Assembly: GCA_007118855.1 (NCBI GenBank)
Contig: SKQU01000140.1
Span: 17,289 to 81,288 of the forward strand
Source: Spirochaetaceae bacterium
GTDB lineage: Bacteria > Spirochaetota > Spirochaetia > DSM-27196 > SLST01
Length of the DNA: 64,000 bases
Direction of reading: 5' to 3'
Below the pieces are notes generated by a model. It ran no database searches, was not told the DNA's origin, and worked only from the letters and a program-made list of their open reading frames with translations. The stretch's first letter is position 1. Each line of letters starts with the position of its first letter. The translations under genes and the position numbers were made by a program. This document shows, piece by piece, positions 2,541 to 29,607 of this stretch.

Positions 2541-2987
2541 GTGCGCTTGCTCGTCGACTGCGACAGTCTGCAGGAGCGGCTACGTCGGATCATCGTCCGT
2601 GCCGCCGGGCGTCACGGGATCGAGGCGATCTTCGTCGCCAACCGTGCGGTGCGAGTTCCCGACGCACCGCAGGTCACCGCCGTGGTTGCAGACGATGCCG
2701 ACGAGTGGATCGTGGGCGAGGCCCGGTCCGGGGACCTCGCGATCACGCGTGATATTCCCCTCGCTGCGCGCCTTGTGCCGCTTGGAGTCGAGGTGATCAC
2801 CGATCGCGGTGAGCACTACACGAGCGAGAATATCCGGGCGCGTCTTTCCGAGCGCGACCTGGCGGCCGGGTGGCGGGAGGCGGGGCTTCTTCAGCAGCGG
2901 GGGCGCGCATACGGCGCCCGCGAGACGCAGGCCTTCGCGAACCTGCTAGACCGGCAGCTTGCGGGCAGGACCGGCAGGTCGAGTTGA
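2541..2987 (+). CDS. YaiI/YqxD family protein (UPF0178)
   Basis: GTG start 4 nt after the manA stop. MRLLVDCDSLQERLRRIIVRAAGRHGIEAIFVAN...DEWIV...GDLAITRDIPLAARL matches the YaiI pattern (VDADACP...LVAN...DDWI...D.VIT.DIPLA). Confidence 0.75.
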   Translation: MRLLVDCDSLQERLRRIIVRAAGRHGIEAIFVANRAVRVPDAPQVTAVVADDADEWIVGEARSGDLAITRDIPLAARLVPLGVEVITDRGEHYTSENIRARLSERDLAAGWREAGLLQQRGRAYGARETQAFANLLDRQLAGRTGRSS

Positions 2988-3012
2988 ACACCCTGACCGA
3001 AATTGTTAGATT
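2984..3012 (+). promoter_or_regulatory. candidate promoter of the flavodiiron gene (TTGAAC-N17-TAGATT)
   Basis: TTGAAC at 2984-2989 and TAGATT at 3007-3012, in a local AT-rich island. The SD AGAGG lies 9 nt before ATG 3039. Confidence 0.45.
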
Positions 3013-3038
3013 TGTATCGATAAAAAAGAGGTGTGACG

Positions 3039-4277
3039 ATGAAGACAACCGAGGTCACCGAGGGAATATTCCGCCTCTCGGCAAACGTCGAAGACATCCT
3101 TTTCGAGGGTATCTGGCCGATTCCGAACGGCGTGTCGATGAACTCGTATATCGTCAAGGGCACGAAGGCTGCGATCGTCGACGGGGTGTGCGACTGGGAC
3201 GGGGTCCCGCAGACGCTCTACGACCAGCTCGACCGGATGCAGATCGACATCAACGACCTGGACTACGTGATCATGAACCACCTCGAGCCCGACCATTCGG
3301 GATGGTTTCGCAGCTTTCTGCAGCTGCGAAGCGACGTGACGGTGATCACGAGCGAGAAGGGCGCCGAGCTCGTGAAGCACTTCTACGGGTACGAGGGAGA
3401 TATCCGCGCGGTCAAGACGGGAGACACGCTCGACCTTGGTGAGGGGAGGGTGCTGCTCTTTGCCGAGATACCGAACGTCCACTGGCCCGAGACCATCGCG
3501 ACCTACGACACGAAGAGCAAGACGCTCCTGCCCTGCGACGCCTTCGGCAGCTTCGGTTCGATCGGCGAGAAGATGTACGACGACCAGCTCGACGAGCAGG
3601 AGCTCGCCTTCTTCGAGCAGGAAGCGACGCGATACTACGCGAACATCGTCGGGCCCTTCTCCGCCTTCGTTCAGCGGGCCATCGACAAGCTCAAGGACAT
3701 CGAGATCAAGATCATCGCGCCGGGACACGGGATCGTGTGGCGACGCAATCCCGCGAAGATCGTGGGCGATTACATCCGCTACGCAAGCTACAGCAAGGGC
3801 CCGGCCAAGACCGACGTCACCGTCCTCTACGCGTCGATGTACGGGATGACGGCGAGGGGGATTGACCCGGTCATCGAGGGACTGCGCAGTGAAGGTGTCA
3901 CGGTCCATGTACATCGGCTGCCGGAGGCTCCCTGGGGCGATGCGCTCGCGAGCGTCTGGCAGAGCTCGGGGGTCGTGGTCGCTGCTCCGACGTATGAGTA
4001 CAAGATGTTTCCGCCCATGGCTGCGCTGCTCGAAGAGCTCGGACGCAAGAAGGCGCTCAACCGGAAGGCGTTCAGCTTCGGCAGCTACGGATGGTCGGGC
4101 GGTGCACAGAAGGAACTCGCCGAGATCACGGAGCGCAACCGGATGAACTGGGACTTTCTCGAGCCGGTAGAGTTCCGCGGAGCGCCGACCAGCGAGCATC
4201 TGGAGCTGATTCGGCAGCGCGGGAAGGAGCTCGCGGTCAAGGTGACGGAGTGGGTTGCCGCCTCCCCGGCTTCGTAG
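3039..4277 (+). CDS. flavodiiron protein (FprA-type O2/NO reductase; metallo-beta-lactamase-like plus flavodoxin-like domains)
   Basis: NSYIVKG...VIMNHLEPDHSG is the diiron H-x-E-x-D-H motif. The C-terminal half is flavodoxin-like (VTVLYASMYGMT...). ATG 3039 is preferred over GTG 3033 on SD spacing. Confidence 0.9.
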   Translation: MKTTEVTEGIFRLSANVEDILFEGIWPIPNGVSMNSYIVKGTKAAIVDGVCDWDGVPQTLYDQLDRMQIDINDLDYVIMNHLEPDHSGWFRSFLQLRSDVTVITSEKGAELVKHFYGYEGDIRAVKTGDTLDLGEGRVLLFAEIPNVHWPETIATYDTKSKTLLPCDAFGSFGSIGEKMYDDQLDEQELAFFEQEATRYYANIVGPFSAFVQRAIDKLKDIEIKIIAPGHGIVWRRNPAKIVGDYIRYASYSKGPAKTDVTVLYASMYGMTARGIDPVIEGLRSEGVTVHVHRLPEAPWGDALASVWQSSGVVVAAPTYEYKMFPPMAALLEELGRKKALNRKAFSFGSYGWSGGAQKELAEITERNRMNWDFLEPVEFRGAPTSEHLELIRQRGKELAVKVTEWVAASPAS

Positions 4278-4303
4278 CCCTCCCGTCTGTAGGCGAGACG
4301 CAG

Positions 4304-4340
4304 AGAAAGGCGGCCGTGAAGCGCCGCCTTTCTTTGCGGT
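4304..4340 (+). terminator. intrinsic terminator after the flavodiiron gene
   Basis: An 11-bp stem (agaaaggcggc 4304-4314 with gccgcctttct 4323-4333) followed by T-rich ttgcggtt. Confidence 0.6.
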
Positions 4341-4346
4341 TCATAC

Positions 4347-4374
4347 TTGACTATTCATATTGGTTTAATATAGT
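4347..4374 (+). promoter_or_regulatory. candidate strong promoter of the sulfur-carrier operon (TTGACT-N16-TATAGT)
   Basis: TTGACT at 4347-4352 and TATAGT at 4369-4374, in a sharply AT-rich stretch. SD GGAG lies before ATG 4394. The leader is too short for a riboswitch. Confidence 0.55.
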
Positions 4375-4393
4375 ATTGGACCGAGGAGATGCA

Positions 4394-4600
4394 ATGAGAA
4401 CGACGATCAACGGCGTTGAGAAGGAGATCGACGAAGCGACCTCCGTCCTTCGGCTCCTGGAAGTCGAGGATGTCGAGTCCCCCGACATGGTGGCCGTGCA
4501 GCTGAACGGCACGATTGTCGACCGGTCGCAGTACGCGCAGACGACCCTTGAGAACGGCGACGTCGTCGAGTTCCTCTACTTCATGGGTGGGGGAGCGTAG
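4394..4600 (+). CDS. ThiS/MoaD-family sulfur-carrier protein with a GG-Ala C-terminus (HcyS-like)
   Basis: 68 aa: MRTTINGVEKEIDEATSVLRLLEVEDVESPDMVAVQLNGTIVDRSQYAQTTLENGDVVEFLYFMGGGA. Size and pattern fit a beta-grasp carrier. The longer 4091 start in the track has no support. The stop overlaps the next start (TAGTG). Confidence 0.8.
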   Translation: MRTTINGVEKEIDEATSVLRLLEVEDVESPDMVAVQLNGTIVDRSQYAQTTLENGDVVEFLYFMGGGA

Positions 4601-5856
4601 TGTTTCAGCCGGCGACCCGCGGTCTGCGCACCCGTGCGATTCACGGCGGCATCCACCCGAATCGCAACCGGGGGGCGACGACCGTCCCGCTCTACTACTC
4701 GAGCTCGTTCGCCTTCGACTCTGCCGAGGATCTCGCCGACGCCTTCGAGGGGCGCCACCCCGGGCATATCTACAGCCGGATCAGTAATCCCACCGTCGGG
4801 GCGTTCGAGCAGCGGATGGCCGCCGTCGAAGGCGGCGTCGGGAGCTTTGCCGCGACGAGCGGGATGGCCGCGATCGGGGCGCTGTGCGGCGTGCTCGCGG
4901 AGGCGGGCAGTCGTGTCGTATTCGCGCGCAGCCTCTTTGGGGGAACCGTGATCTACCTGCGCGAGGTGGCACAGCGGGCGGGCATCCACGTCGATTTCGT
5001 CGACCTGGAGGACCTCCCGGCGCTCGAACGGGCGCTCGAGACCGGCCCCCGTCTGCTCTTCGCAGAGGCGTTGGGCAATCCTCGACTCGACATCCCCCCT
5101 TTCGACCGCGTGATCGCGCTCGCCTCTTCTGCAGAGGTCCCTCTGGTCGTCGATGCGACGCTCATGTCACCGGCGCTCTTCAGCGCGAAGGAGTGCGGCG
5201 CCGCGCTCGTGCTGCACTCCACCACGAAGCTGATCACGGGCAACGGCACCGCGATCGGCGGGGTGATCACCGATCTCGGGCAGTTCGACTGGAGCGGGCA
5301 CCGCTCGCCGGCGATCGCACGGGAGGTGGATCGGGTTGGACCGGGGTTCGCCTTTCTCGCGGCCCTTCGTCGCGCGGGCGGACTGAGTGCCGGCGTGACG
5401 ATGAGCCCCTTCAACGCATTCCTGGGCGCGCTCGGCCTCGAGACACTCGCCCTGCGCGCCGAGACGCAGAGCCGCAGCGCGCTCGAGCTCGCGCGCTACC
5501 TCACGACGCACGACCGGGTGACCGACGTGCGCTATCCCGGGCTTGCGGGGGACCGGTACCATGAGCGCGCCGTGCGGTTCTTCCACGGCGGGAGCGGACC
5601 GCTTCTGACCTTTTCGGTGCTCGACCGGGCGTCGGCGTTCACCGCGATGAACCGGCTGCGCCTGGCGCTGCGGGCGACGAACCTGGGGGACTCGAAGACG
5701 CTCGTGATTCATCCGGCGAGTACGATCTTCCACGAGTGCTCGGCAGAGGAACGCGATTATTCGGGCGTGACCGACGGGCTCATCAGGGTCTCCGTCGGTC
5801 TCGAAGACCTCGAGGACATCATCGGTGATTTCGACCAGGCATTGGCGGACGCGTAG
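4600..5856 (+). CDS. metY: O-acetylhomoserine sulfhydrylase family PLP enzyme (MetY-like)
   Basis: TRAIHGG...YSRISNPTV...AFEQRMAAVEGG...STTKLITGNGTAIGG (PLP lysine)...IHPASTIFHE are the Cys/Met-metabolism PLP enzyme blocks. Confidence 0.85.
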   Translation: MFQPATRGLRTRAIHGGIHPNRNRGATTVPLYYSSSFAFDSAEDLADAFEGRHPGHIYSRISNPTVGAFEQRMAAVEGGVGSFAATSGMAAIGALCGVLAEAGSRVVFARSLFGGTVIYLREVAQRAGIHVDFVDLEDLPALERALETGPRLLFAEALGNPRLDIPPFDRVIALASSAEVPLVVDATLMSPALFSAKECGAALVLHSTTKLITGNGTAIGGVITDLGQFDWSGHRSPAIAREVDRVGPGFAFLAALRRAGGLSAGVTMSPFNAFLGALGLETLALRAETQSRSALELARYLTTHDRVTDVRYPGLAGDRYHERAVRFFHGGSGPLLTFSVLDRASAFTAMNRLRLALRATNLGDSKTLVIHPASTIFHECSAEERDYSGVTDGLIRVSVGLEDLEDIIGDFDQALADA

Positions 5857-5870
5857 TCCGCGGGGGTTCT

Positions 5871-6707
5871 ATGGCATTCAGTGACGAACAGGTTCAGCGG
5901 TACAGCAGGCACATTCTGCTGAAAGGGGTCGGCGGCAAGGGACAGCGGAAGCTGCTCAACGCCCGCGTCCTCGTCGTGGGTGCCGGAGGGCTCGGAAGCC
6001 CCATCTCGCTCTATCTCGCGGCCGCCGGTGTCGGCCACCTCGGCATCGTCGATCCGGACACCGTGGAGCTGAGCAATCTCCAGCGGCAGATCATCCATCA
6101 CACCTCGGACGTGGGGAAGGCCAAAGTCCAGTCGGCCGCCCGCAAGATCGCGGACCTCAATCCGGACGTGGAGGTGATCCCCTACGAACAACGCCTCGAC
6201 GCCGAGAACATCCTCGACATCATCTCCGGGTACGACTTTGTTGTGGAAGGGACCGACAACTTCCCCACGAAGTTCCTCGTGAACGACGCCTGCATTCTCT
6301 CCGACAAACCGTTCAACCAGGGAGGGATCCTTCGCTTCCAGGGGCAGACGATGACGCACGTACCGGGAAGCGCAAGCTACCGGTGCGTCTACCGCGAGCC
6401 CCCCCCGCCCGGGTCGGTTCCCACCTGCAGCGAGGCGGGCGTGCTCGGCGCGATCGCGGGGATGCTCGGCACGATCCAGGCGACCGAGACGCTGAAGTAC
6501 CTGCTCGGCATCGGGGATCTGCTGGTGAACCGGATCCTCTTCTTCGACGCCCTGTCCATGCAGACGAGAGTCGTCGACGTGAAACCCACCGAATGGGCCG
6601 AGCCGGCCGCCTCGAACACGAAGATCGACCGGCTCGTCGAGTACGAACAGCCGGCGTGCGACCTCAATCTTGAGCGCCAGTACGGGCCGAAGGGAGACGC
6701 GACATGA
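5871..6707 (+). CDS. ThiF/MoeB/HesA-family E1-like adenylyltransferase (HcyF/MoeZ-like, no rhodanese domain)
   Basis: QRYSRHILLKGVGGKGQRKLLNARVLVVGAGGLGSPISLYLAAAGVGHLGIVDPDTVELSNLQRQIIH, with YRCVY...PTCSEAGVLG. Only 278 aa, so there is no C-terminal rhodanese. Confidence 0.88.
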   Translation: MAFSDEQVQRYSRHILLKGVGGKGQRKLLNARVLVVGAGGLGSPISLYLAAAGVGHLGIVDPDTVELSNLQRQIIHHTSDVGKAKVQSAARKIADLNPDVEVIPYEQRLDAENILDIISGYDFVVEGTDNFPTKFLVNDACILSDKPFNQGGILRFQGQTMTHVPGSASYRCVYREPPPPGSVPTCSEAGVLGAIAGMLGTIQATETLKYLLGIGDLLVNRILFFDALSMQTRVVDVKPTEWAEPAASNTKIDRLVEYEQPACDLNLERQYGPKGDAT

Positions 6708-7396
6708 GCGAGCGGCTCGTCATACCGCAGGAGATCATCGCCGCTATCGCCGAGCAGGCGGTTGCCGAGGCCCCGAATGAGGCGTGCGGGTATCTGCGGG
6801 GCCTCGAGGGTCGCGTGCACGGCCGGATGGAGCTCACGAACGTGGATGCGAGTCCGGAGCACTTCACGCTCGATCCGCAGGAGCAGTTCGCCGCGCTGAA
6901 GGAGGCTCGCCGGTACGGTGAGCAACTCCTCGCGGTCTACCACAGCCATCCGGAGACGCCGGCGCGCATGTCCGACGAGGATATCAGGCTGGCCAACGAC
7001 CCGAAGACGGTCTACGTGATCCACAGCCTTGCCGACGGACGGACGCGCGGATTCCGCGTCGACCGCACCAGGAGCGTGGTTGAGGTGCCCATCGAGATCG
7101 TCCCGGCTGCACCGGAGACAACGAATCCGGAGACAACGAAAGAGGAGAAAGCCATGGCCGACACGCCGATTGACAGGGATCTCGATCTAAGCGGCGAGGT
7201 GTGCCCGTACACCTTCGTCAAGAGCAAGCTCGCGCTCGAGGAGCTCGACCCGGGACAGGTGCTTCGCGTGACCGTGGACAACAGCGAGAGCGCGAGCAAT
7301 GTACCCAGGAGCCTCTCACTCGAGGGTCATGACATCGTGAGTCTCGAGCAGGCCCGGGGGAAGTGGCTCATCACCGTGCGAAACGCCGACGCATAG
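6704..7396 (+). CDS. JAMM/MPN+ metalloprotease fused to a TusA/SirA-like sulfurtransferase domain
   Basis: The N-terminal ~140 aa carry EACGYL...AVYHSHPETPARMSDED (E...HxHx7Sx2D). The C-terminal ~78 aa read DLDLSGEVCPYTFVKSKLALEELDPGQVLRVTVDN (TusA-type Cys-Pro motif). ATGA overlap with the upstream gene. An in-frame internal ATG at 7154 has its own SD. Confidence 0.8.
   Translation: MSERLVIPQEIIAAIAEQAVAEAPNEACGYLRGLEGRVHGRMELTNVDASPEHFTLDPQEQFAALKEARRYGEQLLAVYHSHPETPARMSDEDIRLANDPKTVYVIHSLADGRTRGFRVDRTRSVVEVPIEIVPAAPETTNPETTKEEKAMADTPIDRDLDLSGEVCPYTFVKSKLALEELDPGQVLRVTVDNSESASNVPRSLSLEGHDIVSLEQARGKWLITVRNADA
7112..7141 (+). repeat. 15-bp tandem duplication in the JAMM-TusA linker
   Basis: ccggagacaacgaat (7112-7126) and ccggagacaacgaaa (7127-7141) encode PETTN and PETTK, immediately before GAGGAG (7142-7147) and ATG 7154. 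Confidence 0.9.
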
Positions 7397-7402
7397 GCCT
7401 CT

Positions 7403-8797
7403 TCAGAACGCAGCGTTTCCCGGGGTGCGAGGGAAGGGGATCACGTCGCGGATGTTCTGCATGCCGGTGCAGTACTGGATGAACCGCTCGAACCCGAGCC
7501 CGAACCCCGAGTGGGGAACCGTGCCGAAGCGCCGCAGCTCGAGGTACCACCAGTAGTCGTCCCGCTCGAGCCCGAGCTCGACGATCCGGGCTTCAAGCGC
7601 GTCCAGGTTCTCCTCGCGCTGGCTGCCCCCTATGATCTCACCGAGCCGGGGGACGAGCACGTCCATCCCGCGGACCGTCCTCCCGTCGTCATTCTGCTTC
7701 ATGTAGAACGCCTTGATGTCGCGCGGGTAGTCGGTGACGATGACGGGGCCGCGGTAGATCTCCTCGGTGAGGAACTTCTCGTGCTCGCTCTGCAGATCCC
7801 TGCCCCAGCTCACCGGGTACTCGAAGGAGGCGCCGCTGTTCGTCAACGCCTCAACCGCCTCGGTATAGGTGATCCGGTTGAAGTCGCTCTCGGCCACCGA
7901 TCGAAGGCTCTCGACGAGGCCCTTCTCGATTCGCTGGTCGAAGAACGCCATATCCTCCTCACATTCGGCGAGCAGTCCCCGTATCAGCACCTTGAGAAAC
8001 TCCTCGGCGAGGTCCATGTTGCCGTGGATGTCGCAGAACGAGACTTCAGGCTCGATCATCCAGAACTCCGCGAGGTGCCGCGTCGTGTTCGAGTTCTCGG
8101 CGCGGAAGGTCGGACCAAAGGTGTAGACGCGATCCATCGCCGTCGCGTAGATCTCCGCGTTCAGCTGCCCGCTGACGGTGAGGAAGGCGGGGCGCCCGAA
8201 GAAGTCGCGGCCGTAGTCCACCTGCGGTGAGGAGGACCCGGGCAGCTTCTCGAGCTCGAGCGTCGTGACCTGGAAGAGCTCTCCGGCGCCCTCGGCGTCG
8301 CTCGCCGTGATGATGGGGGTGTGCACGTAGAGGAACCCGCGCTCGTTGAAGAAGCGATGGATCGCGAAGCTGATGTGGTTGCGGACCCGGGCGATCGCGC
8401 CGAAGGTGTTCGTTCGGGGCCGCAGGTGAGCGATCTCCCGCAGGTACTCGAAGCTGTGTCGTTTCTTCTGCAGCGGGTACTCGTCGCCCGGCGACGGGCC
8501 GACGAGAACGAGCCCCGTGGCCGCGATTTCGACCGCCTGGTTCTGTCCCGGGCTCTCCACGAGCGTGCCGGTGACGACGACGCTCGCTCCGGTCGATACC
8601 GGTTCGACCGCGGCGGCGAGCTCACGGTCGGCGCCGTCGATCGTTGCCTGGATGTTCGACAGACAGGAGCCGTCGTTGATCTCGAGAAAGCTAACGCTCT
8701 TGCCGGCCCGCTTGGTGCGAACCCATCCGGCCACGGTGATCCGGCGACCGTCGGCCGGTGCCCGAAGCGCATCCCGGACGCGAACCCGATCCTGCAT
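7403..8797 (-). CDS. asnS: asparagine--tRNA ligase
   Basis: [11 protein letters not shown]...[10 protein letters not shown]...[21 protein letters not shown]...GFGLGFERF. The start is set at MQDRVRVRD (8797) by spacing to the OB-fold as in E. coli AsnRS. In-frame alternatives lie at 8815 and 8833. Confidence 0.93.
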
Positions 8798-8878
8798 TGC
8801 CGATTCTGCTTCCATGCAGGAGGAGTACCACATCGGCGCCCCGCGGTCAAACTGCCAGGCGGGTGATACTCTGGTAGA

Positions 8879-9232
8879 ATGGACGGCGTGATTCAGATAT
8901 ACGGTCGCAAAAAATGCCCGGACACGAGAAAGGCCGAGCGGTTCTTTCGCGAGCGTCGGGTGGCGTACCAGCTCGTCGACATCGACGTCAAGACTCCCGG
9001 AGCACGGGAGCTCGAGCTCTTCGCCTCCGTCCTCGGTGCCGACGAGCTGCTCGATACGCAGGGCAAACGGTACCGCGAGCGCGGCCTTGCCTACATGGAG
9101 TTCGACGCGCTGAGTGAGATAGGCGAAGACCCCGCGCTCCTGCGCACACCGATCGTTCGCAGCGGCCGCGAGGTCTCCATCGGTCCGGACACGGCATCCT
9201 GGGAGAAGCTCGCGACGCAGGACAGCGGATGA
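8879..9232 (+). CDS. ArsC/Spx/YffB-family thioredoxin-fold protein
   Basis: [31 protein letters not shown]...LLRTPIV is the typical ArsC-family N-terminal Cys and fold pattern. Confidence 0.75.
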
Positions 9233-26233: not shown

Positions 26234-27253
26234 TCATAGCGCGAGCGAGACCGCCGCGTGCGCCGCTCCGTAGAGCGACACCTGGTAGTCCTTGATCAGG
26301 ACCACCGGCGTCTCGCGAAGCAAGGGGGTGATCCGTTCGTTGTAGTTGGACTCGAACGCACGCATGAACCGGTGATCGTCGGTGAACCAGCGTTCGTTCT
26401 TCGCCGCGATGCCCCCGGCGAGGTAGAGCCCGGCGAACGGCAGGAGGAAGAGCGCCGTAGTGCTCGCGAACTGCGCGTAGAGCTCCACGAAGTGCTTCAT
26501 GATGTGCGAGCACCCGGTATGGGTGCCGGCCGCCGCGGCTACGGCTCCAGGCCGGTCGGTGGGAGGAAGACCCAGGATCTGTGAGACCGTCTCGTCACGA
26601 TCGAGACGTTCGCTCTCATAGTAGAAGGCGAACAGATTGGCGATTCCCTGGCCGGAGACGTACTGTTCGGCCCCCGGCTGCTGAGGGAACCGCCGCCGCA
26701 GGAAGCGCGTGAATTCGTCGGTCACCGGATCCATCGAGGCGAAGTCCGCGTGCCCTCCCTCCGAGGGGTGAGCGGCGTAGTGCCCCCGATCCTCGATCAG
26801 GTATCCGGTGCCGAGGCCGGTCCCCGCTCCCACGACCGCCCGCACGGTCCCGCGGGGGGCGGGGGTTGTTCCGTCAGGGTGGGCGAAGACGGTGGTGTCG
26901 ATCCGGGGATGCGAATCGAGAAGCGGCAGCGCGTAGCATATCGCCGAGAAGTCGTTGATCACGAAGACCGGTATACCCACGAAGCGCTCGACGTCGGCAC
27001 GGTCAATCGTGAAGTGAACGTTCGTCATGCGACAGATCCCGTCGCGGATGGGGCCGGCCCCGCTGAGGCAGCACAGCCGAGCGGCGCGCCAGAGCTCCGG
27101 GTGGCGGTCACGGAAGCGTGCAAGGGCATCCTTGACGTCCGTCAGCGCCGCCGTGTCGAACCGCTCTCGCGATTGGAGGGCAAAACGCCCCTCGTCCTCT
27201 TCGATCGCCGCGATGCTTGTGTTCGTTCCTCCAATATCCCCAACCAGGATCAT
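26234..27253 (-). CDS. glk: glucokinase (Glk family)
   Basis: MILVGDIGGTNTSIAAIE...VINDF.A..YALP...AVVGAGTGLGTGYL...SEGGHADFA. Confidence 0.85.
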   Translation of the reverse strand: MILVGDIGGTNTSIAAIEEDEGRFALQSRERFDTAALTDVKDALARFRDRHPELWRAARLCCLSGAGPIRDGICRMTNVHFTIDRADVERFVGIPVFVINDFSAICYALPLLDSHPRIDTTVFAHPDGTTPAPRGTVRAVVGAGTGLGTGYLIEDRGHYAAHPSEGGHADFASMDPVTDEFTRFLRRRFPQQPGAEQYVSGQGIANLFAFYYESERLDRDETVSQILGLPPTDRPGAVAAAAGTHTGCSHIMKHFVELYAQFASTTALFLLPFAGLYLAGGIAAKNERWFTDDHRFMRAFESNYNERITPLLRETPVVLIKDYQVSLYGAAHAAVSLAL

Positions 27254-27301
27254 GGGCCGACTCTACCGGAGCGCTGGGAAAAAGGCAAGGAAGACGCTAT
27301 C

Positions 27302-27331
27302 TTGAACCTGCCGACGGTTATCCGGTAGCAT
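27302..27331 (+). promoter_or_regulatory. weak candidate promoter of the DHH-to-TIM-barrel operon (TTGAAC-N18-TAGCAT)
   Basis: TTGAAC at 27302-27307 and TAGCAT at 27326-27331, in the 98-bp divergent spacer shared with glk. Confidence 0.25.
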
Positions 27332-27351
27332 GTCCCGAATTGGAGGAATGC

Positions 27352-28281
27352 ATGGGGGGCGACAGAAAGCGATACCGCCTCGTGACCCGCAGCGACTTCG
27401 ATGGGCTTGTCTGTGCAGTGCTCCTCAAAGAGCTCGATCTCATTGACGAGATCAAGTTCGTGCATCCGAAGGACATGCAGGACGGGCTGATCGCGATCAG
27501 CGACAACGATATCACCACCAATCTGCCCTATGTGGATGGCGTCCATCTCGCATTCGATCACCATCTCTCGGAGTCTCGTCGGAATGCCGTGCACGACAAC
27601 TACATCATCCATCCGGAAGCGCCGTCTGCCGCCCGTGTCGTGTACGAGCACTATGGCGGAGCAAAGCGGTTCAAGGGTGTTCCCCGCGATCTCATGGAAG
27701 CCGTGGACAAGGGCGACTCGGCGAGCTTCACGATGGAGGAGGTGCTCGAGCCGAGGGGATGGAACCTCCTGAACTTCATCATGGATGCGCGAACCGGGCT
27801 CGGACGGTTCCGGAACTTCAGGATCTCGAACTATCAGCTTATGATGGACCTCATCGACTACTGCCGGGAGTATCCCATTGAGGAGATCCTCAAGCTCCAG
27901 GACGTCCGTGAACGGGTCGAGCTCTACCGCGCCCACGAACGGCTCTTCCAGGAGCAGACCCGTTCGTGCTCGGAGGCGCAGGGCAATGTGCTCGTCCTCG
28001 ACCTGCGCGGCGAGGAGACGATCTACGCCGGGAACCGGTTCATCAAGTACGCGCTCTACCCGGAGACGAATGTGTCAATCCAGGTCATCTGGGGGTTCCA
28101 GAAGCAGAACACGGTGCTGAGTGTGGGGAAGTCGATCTTCAACCGCACGTCGGACGCGAATATCGGCGAGTTGATGCTCGAATACGGGGGCGGCGGACAT
28201 ATGTCGGCCGGTACCTGTCAGGTCGCCACCGACGAGGCCGACCGGATCCTGACCGAGCTCATGGAACGACTGAGAGAGTAG
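27352..28281 (+). CDS. DHH/DHHA1-family phosphoesterase
   Basis: RYRLVTRSDFDGLVCAVLLKE...LAFDHH (DHH motif)...EYGGGGHMSAGTCQV (DHHA1 GGGH motif). The start is taken at ATG 27352; the 27217 track start overlaps the glk start region. Confidence 0.8.
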   Translation: MGGDRKRYRLVTRSDFDGLVCAVLLKELDLIDEIKFVHPKDMQDGLIAISDNDITTNLPYVDGVHLAFDHHLSESRRNAVHDNYIIHPEAPSAARVVYEHYGGAKRFKGVPRDLMEAVDKGDSASFTMEEVLEPRGWNLLNFIMDARTGLGRFRNFRISNYQLMMDLIDYCREYPIEEILKLQDVRERVELYRAHERLFQEQTRSCSEAQGNVLVLDLRGEETIYAGNRFIKYALYPETNVSIQVIWGFQKQNTVLSVGKSIFNRTSDANIGELMLEYGGGGHMSAGTCQVATDEADRILTELMERLRE

Positions 28282-29607
28282 ATGAGCCTGCCTGCGGATC
28301 TCAACGCCTCCACCCGGCAGGAGCGGCTCAGGGCACTGCGCGGGCATCTTGAGGCGAATACCGACTCCATACACGAGGTGCCTTTCACCGACGAGGTGAA
28401 CAACCACGTACACACCACGTACTCGTTCAGCCCGTACTCGCCGACCGCCGCGGCATGGATGGCGAGGAGCGCCGGCCTGCGGGCGGTCGGGAGTGTGGAT
28501 CACGATGCCATTGCAGCGGCTCCGGAGACGCTCGAGGCGTGCCGGATGATCGGGATCGGCGCCACCGTCGGGTGCGAGGTCCGCGTCAGCTTCACCGGCA
28601 CCGCGGTCGAGGGGCGCAGCATCAACAATCCGGACAGCCCGAACCTGGCCTATATCGTCTTCCACGGGGTTCCCGCAACCAGGATTGACGATGTGGATCG
28701 CTTTCTCGCACCCATCCGGGCCCGACGGAACGAGCGAAACGCGCGCCAGACCCGCGCGATGAGCGACCTGCTCGGAGCAGCCGGAGCCCCGCCCGTGAGC
28801 TTCGCCGACGTCACCGCGGGCTCTTTCGCGAGCGAAGGCGGGGGGATCACCGAGCGGCACCTGCTCTATGCCGCGAGTCTCGCGCTCATGGACTGGTTGC
28901 GGCCGGGCATCAAGCTGCGTCGGTTCGCCGAGGAGAAACTCACGGGAGAGCTGTCCGACCGGCTGCGCGAGCACCTCGACGACGCGCTCAACCCTCACTA
29001 CGTCTACGATCTGCTCGGGGCGTTGAAGGTATCCTTTCTCCCCCGTTTCTTCGAGCAACCCTCCCAGGGTGAGTGCATCCCGGTAGCCGACGCGGTGGAC
29101 TTCGCGAACTCACTCGAGGCGATTTCCGCGTATGCCTACCTCGGCGACGTGGCCGACTCTCCAACCGGCGACAAGAAGGCGGCCTCCTTCGAGGACGCCT
29201 ATCTCGACGAGCTTTTCGTGGAGCTCGAGCGTCTCGGGTTCCGCGCGGTGACGTACATGCCGCCCCGCAATACGCTCGCGCAGCTGCGCCGGGTGCAGGA
29301 GCTTTGTCGTTCACACGGGCTCATGGAGATCAGCGGAGTCGACATCAACTCGTCGCGGCAGGCCTTCACCTGCGAAGAGATCCTGCGACCGGAGTTCCGC
29401 CACCTCATCGACGCCACCTGGGCTCTGATCGCGCACGAGAGACTCGCGACGGTGTCGCGGGACTACTCACTCTTCGCTGAGGCCAATCCGGTACCGGGCG
29501 ACCTGTATGCAAGAATCGACACGTATGCGCGCATAGGTCGTGCGATCGATCCGCACCACCCTGAGGCAGTAGTCTCGGCGGCCTCCGGGATCGCCTCATT
29601 CGGATAG
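28282..29607 (+). CDS. PHP-domain (polymerase/histidinol-phosphatase-like) metal-dependent phosphoesterase
   Basis: VNNHVHTTYSFSPYSP...GSVDHD is a PHP motif I/II pattern. It starts directly after the DHH stop (TAGATG). Confidence 0.65.
   Translation: MSLPADLNASTRQERLRALRGHLEANTDSIHEVPFTDEVNNHVHTTYSFSPYSPTAAAWMARSAGLRAVGSVDHDAIAAAPETLEACRMIGIGATVGCEVRVSFTGTAVEGRSINNPDSPNLAYIVFHGVPATRIDDVDRFLAPIRARRNERNARQTRAMSDLLGAAGAPPVSFADVTAGSFASEGGGITERHLLYAASLALMDWLRPGIKLRRFAEEKLTGELSDRLREHLDDALNPHYVYDLLGALKVSFLPRFFEQPSQGECIPVADAVDFANSLEAISAYAYLGDVADSPTGDKKAASFEDAYLDELFVELERLGFRAVTYMPPRNTLAQLRRVQELCRSHGLMEISGVDINSSRQAFTCEEILRPEFRHLIDATWALIAHERLATVSRDYSLFAEANPVPGDLYARIDTYARIGRAIDPHHPEAVVSAASGIASFG

Follow-up and report, generated by a model that had tools for sequence, protein, structure and literature searches.

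Homocysteine can be formed with a protein thiocarboxylate as the sulfur donor, and a pathway of this type was reportedly shown in Wolinella in 2011. Its components there are the sulfur carrier HcyS-Ala, the E1 enzyme HcyF, the protease HcyD and the pyridoxal 5'-phosphate (PLP) enzyme MetY, the structure of which (3RI6) is said to come from Tran et al. in 2011. We analyzed a locus encoding the same four protein types in a stretch of 64,000 nucleotides from a Spirochaetaceae bacterium (GenBank assembly GCA_007118855.1, contig SKQU01000140.1, positions 17,289 to 81,288), referred to as the window. Open reading frame (ORF) calling placed four ORFs on the + strand between positions 4394 and 7396, encoding a carrier, a MetY, an E1 and a fusion of a JAMM protease with TusA (JAMM::TusA). 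The operon probably serves the synthesis of homocysteine with a protein thiocarboxylate, as in the HcyS/HcyF/HcyD/MetY system of Wolinella, judging from its domains and its relatives. It is a compact member of a known family and not categorically new. The pathway class was predicted in 2006, with Wolinella included in row 4e of Table 1 (Iyer, Burroughs and Aravind, PMC1779556), and secondary literature states that the Wolinella MetY uses a protein thiocarboxylate.

The same logic, with a beta-grasp thiocarboxylate as donor, an E1, a PLP enzyme and release by a JAMM protease, is found in the CysO/MoeZ/Mec+/CysM system of M. tuberculosis and the MetO/MoeZ/Mec/MetM system of Streptomyces. The PLP enzymes of these two are fold-type II proteins (CysM and the threonine-synthase-like MetM) with O-phospho substrates, whereas the enzyme of the window is MetY-type and belongs to fold type I (PF01053). 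Furthermore, their MoeZ carries a rhodanese domain, whose place is taken by TusA in the window. The parallel with CysO/Mec/MoeZ/CysM had already been drawn in an earlier reading of the DNA by a model that saw the sequence alone, here called the original prediction; it holds for the logic, though not for PLP fold type and rhodanese.

The original prediction had assigned the gene set to the thiocarboxylate-dependent methionine pathway of Wolinella. It listed a 68-aa ThiS/MoaD-like ORF with one alanine past the glycines, a PLP-dependent O-acetylhomoserine sulfhydrylase homologue, a 278-aa ThiF/MoeB-type E1 without rhodanese and, as the last gene, a JAMM/MPN+ metalloprotease. The profile searches it had proposed for the four proteins agreed with the list throughout (Pfam ThiS, E=1.9e-12; PF01053, E=1.9e-102; PF00899 as the only domain of the E1, E=2.5e-79; Prok-JAB, E=1.3e-21), and the assignment to the pathway is supported by the domains, catalytic residues, synteny and 3RI6-type MetY signatures.

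In the comparison with Wolinella, where MetY was the protein compared by sequence (3RI6), the carrier likewise has an extra residue after its C-terminal glycines and the E1 likewise lacks a rhodanese. A loop deletion and an I-[F/Y] motif are common to the window MetY and 3RI6, which also cluster together. According to PMC1779556, a SirA/TusA gene also belongs to the Wolinella-type neighbourhood. Differences were found as well: there are no sulfite reductase or sulfate-activation genes near the window locus, TusA is fused to JAMM, the E1 has lost three of four zinc ligands and MetY is only 38% identical to 3RI6. At the level of sequence the locus has every defining feature of the Wolinella-type system except the linkage to sulfite reductase, which is accessory. 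The parts list of class 4e as given in PMC1779556 is the same, namely ThiS/MoaD, JAB, E1, SirA and sulfur-assimilation genes including an O-acetylhomoserine sulfhydrylase. Compared with that class the window locus represents a minimal core without genes for sulfate transport, activation or reduction, and a JAB::SirA fusion is not described in the passages of that paper that were consulted.

The locus was compared with 80 related loci, each from a species representative. These were drawn from an alignment of JAMM homologues, their ORFs were called and searched with the five domains of the window proteins, and many of the incomplete ones are cut by contig ends. The set ThiS-MetY-ThiF-JAMM was complete in 41 of the 80 loci, mostly in that order. 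Complete loci occurred in Spirochaetota, Desulfobacterota, Bacteroidota/Ignavibacteriota (Melioribacter), Planctomycetota, Margulisbacteria/Saganbacteria, Omnitrophota, Bacillota/Thermoanaerobacterium, Campylobacterota and others. Recurrent neighbours among the 80 loci were 3'-phosphoadenosine 5'-phosphosulfate (PAPS) reductase/CysD, CysN/C, sulfate ABC transporters and binding proteins, sulfite reductase, enzymes of siroheme and haem-precursor synthesis, CysK/M-like PALP enzymes, Rrf2 regulators and DsrE2. This annotation was made with Pfam for recurrent families only, about 22 of the 25 largest clusters. The census reproduces class 4e of PMC1779556. A sulfite reductase, together with sulfate-assimilation genes, was clustered with 24 of the 41 complete loci. 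Ten of the 41 were minimal, with no sulfur-source gene within 4 kb, and came mostly from Desulfobulbia-type Desulfobacterota and soda-lake Spirochaetales. The linkage to sulfite reductase is therefore an accessory and not a core feature. The nearest species representatives are labelled as metagenome-assembled genomes (MAGs) of Spirochaetales or Spirochaetaceae and bear isolate names such as CSSed..., T3Sed10 and B1Sed10, which we take to denote bins from soda-lake sediment.

The HcyS-like sulfur carrier (4394..4600, +) is a pro-form of 68 aa (MRTTINGVEKEIDEATSVLRLLEVEDVESPDMVAVQLNGTIVDRSQYAQTTLENGDVVEFLYFMGGGA) with the C-terminus FLYFMGGG-A, i.e. with one extra alanine. Its best relative in the PDB is a Geobacter metallireducens protein deposited as "ThiS" (3CWI/2K5P; E=1.7e-12 over the full length), which likewise carries ...VEFLYFMGGG. 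An AlphaFold2 model built with 24 homologues reached a predicted local distance difference test (pLDDT) score of 88.8 and showed the beta-beta-alpha-beta-beta...beta order of a beta-grasp, with the tail residues 66-68 disordered. Foldseek aligned the model with template modelling (TM) scores of 0.89 to 3CWI and 0.85 to E. coli ThiS from the ThiS-ThiF complex. The predicted fold of the carrier is thus a beta-grasp, a point on which the original prediction had been made to depend.

A word-indexed protein search with the 68-aa carrier yielded only 24 homologues, and the statistics of the C-terminus therefore rest mainly on the 64 of the 80 loci with a ThiS gene. Within these loci and the database homologues the residues F60-L-Y-F-M-G-G-G67 were invariant and were followed by a variable tail (A, R, Q, S, GS.., up to 20 or more residues); only two or three sequences had no tail. 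Moreover, MetY was preceded in frame by a fused carrier in L052 (5043-6479) and L086 (5234-6679), giving proteins of 478-481 aa, as was a PALP cysteine-synthase-like enzyme in L024 (4862-5980) and L056 (4772-5923), giving 372-383 aa. An invariant GGG followed by an arbitrary tail or a fused enzyme would require an endoprotease, which would explain the co-encoded JAMM. This pattern across the family supports the reading as an "HcyS-Ala", matured by the JAMM protein of the same operon. Both kinds of carrier fusion resemble ubiquitin fusion precursors, which need JAMM cleavage.

The second gene (4600..5856, +; 418 aa, GTG start) encodes a MetY-type PLP enzyme for gamma-replacement of the O-acylhomoserine sulfhydrylase clade. 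Its predicted PLP lysine, K210 (5227-5229), aligns with the lysine of 7KB0 and 3RI6. The enzyme is 38% identical to Wolinella MetY 3RI6 (270 bits) and 40% identical to the free-sulfide MetY of T. maritima, 7KB0 (297 bits). Since such whole-sequence similarity to PDB entries fails to separate carrier-dependent from free-sulfide enzymes, signatures of indels and motifs as well as a tree were needed, and 53 MetYs were aligned and a neighbour-joining tree was calculated. A "DPSYHG..." loop of 9-15 residues (MetY residues 230-251, window 5287-5352) was deleted in the window MetY, in 3RI6 and in 37 of 38 ThiS-adjacent MetYs; it was present in the canonical set, i.e. 7KB0, 8SF5 and the second-copy MetYs of L024, L030, L039 and L040. 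The second signature (residues 371-378 with I376, window 5710-5733) reads HPASTI[F/Y] in 33 of the 38 ThiS-adjacent MetYs as opposed to HPASTTH in canonical ones; the window has TIF and 3RI6 has VIY at this site. In the tree 3RI6 fell within the ThiS-linked group and the canonical MetYs formed a separate clade. Both signatures and the tree support the placement of the window MetY in the carrier-linked clade of 3RI6. The missing DPSYHG loop, we infer, would open the active site to the tail of the carrier. Loop deletion and HPASTI[F/Y] together could help to annotate ThiS-linked MetYs.

An HcyF-like ThiF/MoeB-type E1 adenylyltransferase of 278 aa follows (5871..6707, +). Pfam found PF00899 alone and thus no rhodanese domain, and the MoeZ model NF005902 was matched only over its positions 15-271 of 392, i.e. 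without the rhodanese part. Likewise, none of the 73 aligned E1s had a C-terminal extension of the size of a rhodanese. The closest PDB matches were Uba4, ThiF and MoeB at E about 1e-50. The ATP loop GAGGLG is kept, and C172, C186 (in PTCSEAG) and C263 are each conserved in 73/73 sequences, C186 corresponding to the reactive cysteine of ThiF and Uba4. Three of the four zinc ligands are lost, with S169 (6375-6377), A243 (6597-6599) and A246 (6606-6608) in their places. The CxxC...CxxC zinc tetrad is kept in 64 of the 73 family members; its loss is common to the soda-lake Spirochaetales clade (L004, L008, L009, L015, L020) and a few others. Cys263 (6657-6659) belongs to a conserved motif of the C-terminal tail, EYEQxxC(D/E)L, past the part that aligns with solved structures of ThiF, MoeB and Uba4. 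It may accept persulfide sulfur in place of the rhodanese cysteine.

The last ORF (6704-7396, +) encodes the JAMM::TusA fusion of 230 aa. Residues 1-133 (6704..7102, +) form a HcyD-like JAMM/MPN+ metalloprotease domain, with the Prok-JAB match at 8-109. The JAMM motif is complete (E26, H80-x-H82, S90, D93) and invariant in 47 homologues. Several JAMM homologues carry the Joint Genome Institute name "CysO-cysteine hydrolase". PDB relatives are 2KKS (E=1e-21) and P. furiosus JAMM1 5LDA (E=1.4e-10). A flexible linker rich in Pro, Glu and Thr (7103..7165, +), which stems from the gene fusion, leads to the TusA/SirA-like sulfur-transfer domain (7166..7396, +; residues about 155-230; PF01206, E=4.1e-19 at 159-226). 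The latter is related to 1JDQ (E=3e-10) and to Spirochaeta thermophila YeeD/TsuB 8K1R (E=3.6e-9). Its Cys167 lies in GEVCPYTF, and the Cys-Pro is conserved in 77/77 family members. In the AlphaFold model of the fusion (pLDDT 90.1, predicted TM score 0.65) two well-folded domains (pLDDT ~95 for JAMM and ~90 for TusA) are joined by a disordered linker, with pLDDT <50 at residues 139-145.

The nearest relatives, L004 and L009, have a JAMM domain 82-84% identical to that of the window. They carry separate genes for a JAMM of 150 aa and a TusA of 79 aa, which overlap as ATGGCTGA. Aligned with these two, the linker of the window shows indels of +2 and +3 nt, which join the two frames. Judged from this alignment, the JAMM::TusA fusion of the window is recent. 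The former signals of tusA are kept in the linker, namely the Shine-Dalgarno sequence AAGAGGAG at 7140-7147 and an ATG at 7154-7156 (Met151). Because both survive, free TusA might still be made alongside the fusion. Other JAMM::TusA fusions (P0051, P0072, P0100 and the Desulfobulbia-type L016 and L080) are only ~40% identical and their own relatives are unfused, from which it appears that such a fusion arose more than once. An assembly error was considered and rejected, as the locus is identical in three assemblies (two ENA metagenome contigs and MAG GCA_007132295.1, contig SLOX01000111), each with the same 230-aa ORF. The fusion as a hallmark of the lineage was rejected as well, in view of the separate overlapping genes in the relatives of 82-84% identity.

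No sulfite reductase is encoded in the operon, as the original prediction had noted along with a TusA-like domain, now placed in the fusion with JAMM. Homology and Pfam searches of the 64-kb window gave no homologue of sulfite reductase (Sir), CysD/H, CysNC, DsrE, YeeE or rhodanese, and no sulfur, methionine or thiamin gene was found elsewhere in the window. However, the idea that TusA stands here "instead" of a sulfite reductase did not hold. Of the 80 loci 68 had TusA, among them 39 of the 41 complete ones; 44 loci carried it as a stand-alone gene of 74-85 aa and 24 as a C-terminal fusion to sulfite reductase (Sir::TusA, 700-800 aa, e.g. L054 8411-10753 and L024 8365-10476). JAMM::Sir::TusA was seen once (L066, 7977-10751). 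The Sir::TusA arrangement suggests that reduced sulfur passes straight from siroheme to TusA. As an observation apart, fusions of the type JAMM::Sir(::TusA) occur, and L051 (8001-9284) is among the loci with sulfite reductase fusions. PMC1779556 (Iyer, Burroughs and Aravind 2006) describes SirA as always present in these neighbourhoods, predicts a rhodanese-like role for it and describes the E1 as always free of rhodanese. Given this prediction and the near-universal presence of TusA, the persulfide relay suggested in the original prediction is an older idea, dating from 2006, and would not be peculiar to the window locus. Peculiar to it are the JAMM::TusA fusion and the lack of a sulfur-source gene nearby.

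A different context for TusA was found in sister Spirochaetales (L010 at 2912-6485, L011, L017 and L019). Four genes lie there between E1 and ThiS. Besides TusA and a tandem rhodanese, they encode a TsuA-like thiosulfate transporter, which scored 205 bits on the model of Spirochaeta TsuA, and a protein of 367-376 aa for which a weak beta-propeller match was the only one. Transporter, rhodanese and TusA stand directly upstream of ThiS, which is followed by MetY (in L010 and L011 only) and JAMM. The JAMM of L010/L011 is up to 69% identical to that of the window. With transporter and rhodanese as the partners of TusA, the sister loci recall the TsuA-TsuB system. With known relays (E. coli TusA-IscS, S. 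thermophila TsuA-TsuB 8K1R, the rhodanese of Uba4/MOCS3) the TusA fold with its reactive Cys-Pro is common ground. Nevertheless, the window TusA stays under the cut-offs for YedF (47 vs 79) and TsuB (29 vs 147), and its motif is CPYT and not CPxP.

In the pathway proposed here, the JAMM protease would trim the extra alanine after the GGG of the carrier, as homology and the variable tails throughout the family indicate. The E1 would then adenylate the exposed C-terminal glycine with ATP, for which its conserved ThiF/MoeB motifs speak. Addition of sulfur would give carrier-COSH, with the persulfide of TusA Cys167 as the presumed donor, in the role that rhodanese plays in MoeZ and Uba4. Genes elsewhere could supply the sulfur for Cys167, for example by thiosulfate uptake and rhodanese as in the sister Spirochaetales, or by a cysteine desulfurase; alternatively, free HS- might attack the adenylate directly. 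The MetY-type enzyme would exchange the O-acyl group of activated homoserine for the thiocarboxylate, and an S-to-N acyl shift would lead to carrier-homocysteine. Its amide would finally be hydrolysed by the JAMM protease, by which homocysteine is released and the carrier recycled. Trimming, adenylation, the MetY exchange and the final hydrolysis were reportedly all shown biochemically in Wolinella by Krishnamoorthy and Begley in 2011.

On balance, the Cys167 persulfide appears to be the most likely physiological donor, since TusA is universally retained, its cysteine is invariant, the E1 has no rhodanese and the sister loci provide a fitting context. The stronger proposal, that TusA is the obligatory donor and passes the Cys167 persulfide to the E1-bound carrier adenylate, possibly via E1 Cys263 or C186, is tentative and we would not expect it to hold. 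If it did, homocysteine synthesis would be independent of free sulfide, and JAMM::TusA would couple maturation and recycling of the carrier to its re-sulfuration on one scaffold. It would be the first demonstrated relay from TusA to the thiocarboxylate of a ubiquitin-like protein (Ubl) and would explain the Sir::TusA fusions of many relatives, in which TusA would capture nascent sulfide directly. We know of no report of a transfer from TusA to a Ubl acyl-adenylate, and literature searches on HcyS/HcyD/HcyF and on TusA with thiocarboxylate returned clinical homocysteine papers or nothing relevant.

Several points weigh against assigning the operon to thiocarboxylate-dependent homocysteine synthesis with TusA as the donor. 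The MetY-type enzyme stays under every NCBIfam equivalog cut-off (377 bits against 495 for its top match, the O-acetylhomoserine/O-acetylserine (OAH/OAS) sulfhydrylase subfamily TIGR01326), and by overall similarity it appears no nearer to Wolinella MetY than to the free-sulfide enzyme of T. maritima. The carrier passes the equivalog model of thiamin ThiS, TIGR01683, and the 64-kb window holds no metX/metA, sulfur-source gene or methionine synthase. Furthermore, sulfide alone is said to have sufficed in the in vitro reconstitution of the Wolinella pathway, so TusA may be dispensable, and free HS- may be plentiful in a sulfidic-sediment habitat, as judged from the MAG names. The last two points lead to a variant of the same pathway in which free bisulfide of the habitat attacks the carrier acyl-adenylate and TusA is an accessory with a protective or regulatory function or one in another pathway. 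The absence of a sulfur-source gene from operon and window would fit it, as would the ten equally minimal loci among the 41 complete ones, mostly from Desulfobulbia and soda-lake Spirochaetales that live with sulfide. We nevertheless regard this variant as rather unlikely: the 39 complete loci that keep TusA include the minimal ones, its cysteine is invariant, its fusions to JAMM and to sulfite reductase arose independently, and the E1 is without the rhodanese domain found in other E1s that form thiocarboxylates.

The remaining alternatives concern the product or the purpose of the system. Cysteine, alone or together with homocysteine, would be formed if the MetY-type enzyme, like CysM in its reaction with CysO, combined the thiocarboxylate with O-acetyl- or O-phosphoserine. 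Bifunctionality is common among OAH sulfhydrylases, the enzyme has an OAH/OAS subfamily as its top NCBIfam match and 8SF5 is annotated as OAH/OAS; also, a PALP cysteine-synthase-like gene is present in 19 related loci and fused to the carrier in two. The sole PLP enzyme here, however, is MetY-like and of fold type I, not CysM-like, and bears the signatures of the Wolinella MetY, a homocysteine maker. Separate genes for MetY and CysK/M are kept in related loci, and this implies distinct tasks for the two; a cysteine product thus seems improbable. Still less can be said for a system of protein conjugation and deconjugation resembling SAMP or TtuB, made up of Ubl, E1 and JAMM, in which MetY would be a target or a bystander. 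Although the E1 scores 317 bits on the model of the SAMP-activating UbaA, the JAMM 68 bits on the desampylase model and the JAMM1-SAMP2 structure 5LDA is among the PDB matches, both scores fall far short of the cut-offs (450 and 130). An E2-like gene is not present, MetY lies between carrier and E1 with a start/stop overlap across many phyla, and sulfur-assimilation genes are neighbours elsewhere. Finally, carrier and E1 could be a ThiS/ThiF pair of thiamin synthesis adjoining metY by chance, as the pass on TIGR01683 (68 bits, cut-off 37) and the deposition of the closest structure, 3CWI, as "ThiS" would suggest. This is scarcely credible, considering that the ThiS of thiamin synthesis ends in GG without a tail and needs no JAMM, and that the FLYFMGGG clade is linked with MetY and JAMM as well as with sulfur assimilation. 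In addition, no thiamin genes (ThiG, ThiH or ThiO) were among the annotated recurrent neighbour families of the 80 loci, for which no direct ThiG query was run.

Read as a thiocarboxylate-dependent homocysteine operon, the locus offers a clean minimal example of an under-annotated pathway, with four genes, one promoter and no sulfate-reduction genes. The census yields rules for annotation, namely a carrier with FLYFMGGG and a tail, a short-loop MetY with HPASTI[F/Y] and, nearly always, TusA. The locus also bears on the role of TusA, predicted since 2006, for which the compact fusion would be a convenient construct. The pathway was described as missing from KEGG and MetaCyc and mis-annotated in UniProt (Price et al. 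2018).

The boundaries of the operon are well marked. A terminator-like hairpin (4299..4338, +; RNA fold -31.7 kcal/mol, z = -5.5; stem end UUUCUUUG), as stable as which none of 200 shuffled sequences folded, lies past the upstream flavodiiron gene, which it would terminate, and marks the 5' boundary of the operon. A sigma-70-like promoter, TTGACT-N16-TATAGT (4347..4374, +), follows. It matches the consensus in 10/12 positions and lies in one of only three AT-rich islands of the window (GC 0.33-0.38 over 4321-4410). The original prediction had called it the best-looking promoter of the window; sequence and AT-rich island stood, but three other sites tie with it at 10/12, and it is joint best among four. 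The Shine-Dalgarno sequence GAGGAG (4383-4388) ends 5 nt 5' of the ATG of the carrier, and the leader is ~12 nt long. Control by a riboswitch or leader (S-adenosylmethionine, T-box) was excluded because a leader of this length is too short; at the gathering threshold Rfam found no riboswitch in the window and matched two tRNAs only.

Four coupled genes had been predicted, and this applies to two of the three junctions. The stop of the carrier overlaps the GTG start of MetY as TAGTG (4598-4602) and E1 and JAMM::TusA overlap as ATGA (6704-6707), but MetY and E1 are separated by a spacer of 14 nt (5857-5870). Six bases past the last stop of the operon ends a convergent gene for a class II aminoacyl-tRNA synthetase (7403-8833, - strand). 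Between terminator and promoter on one side and the convergent gene on the other, the four genes form a self-contained unit with a single promoter.

The flavodiiron protein gene directly upstream past the terminator (3033-4277, +) combines metallo-beta-lactamase/ODP and flavodoxin domains and is FprA/NorV-like. Its adjacency is kept in the relatives of 82% identity. In the remainder of the window, which is chromosomal, lie genes for sugar metabolism and for a 2-oxoacid dehydrogenase, two tRNAs and an rpoB/rpoC-ribosomal cluster. Two adjacent ORFs with high GC content at third codon positions (27217-28281 and 28282-29607, +; 354 and 441 aa) gave no match to Pfam at E<=1e-5. A gene for a thiol-redox protein of the ArsC/Spx family (8879-9232, +; 117 aa) lies a short distance downstream of the convergent tRNA-synthetase gene, behind a promoter-like site that matches in 9/12 positions with an extended TG, and its adjacency is kept in the relatives as well.

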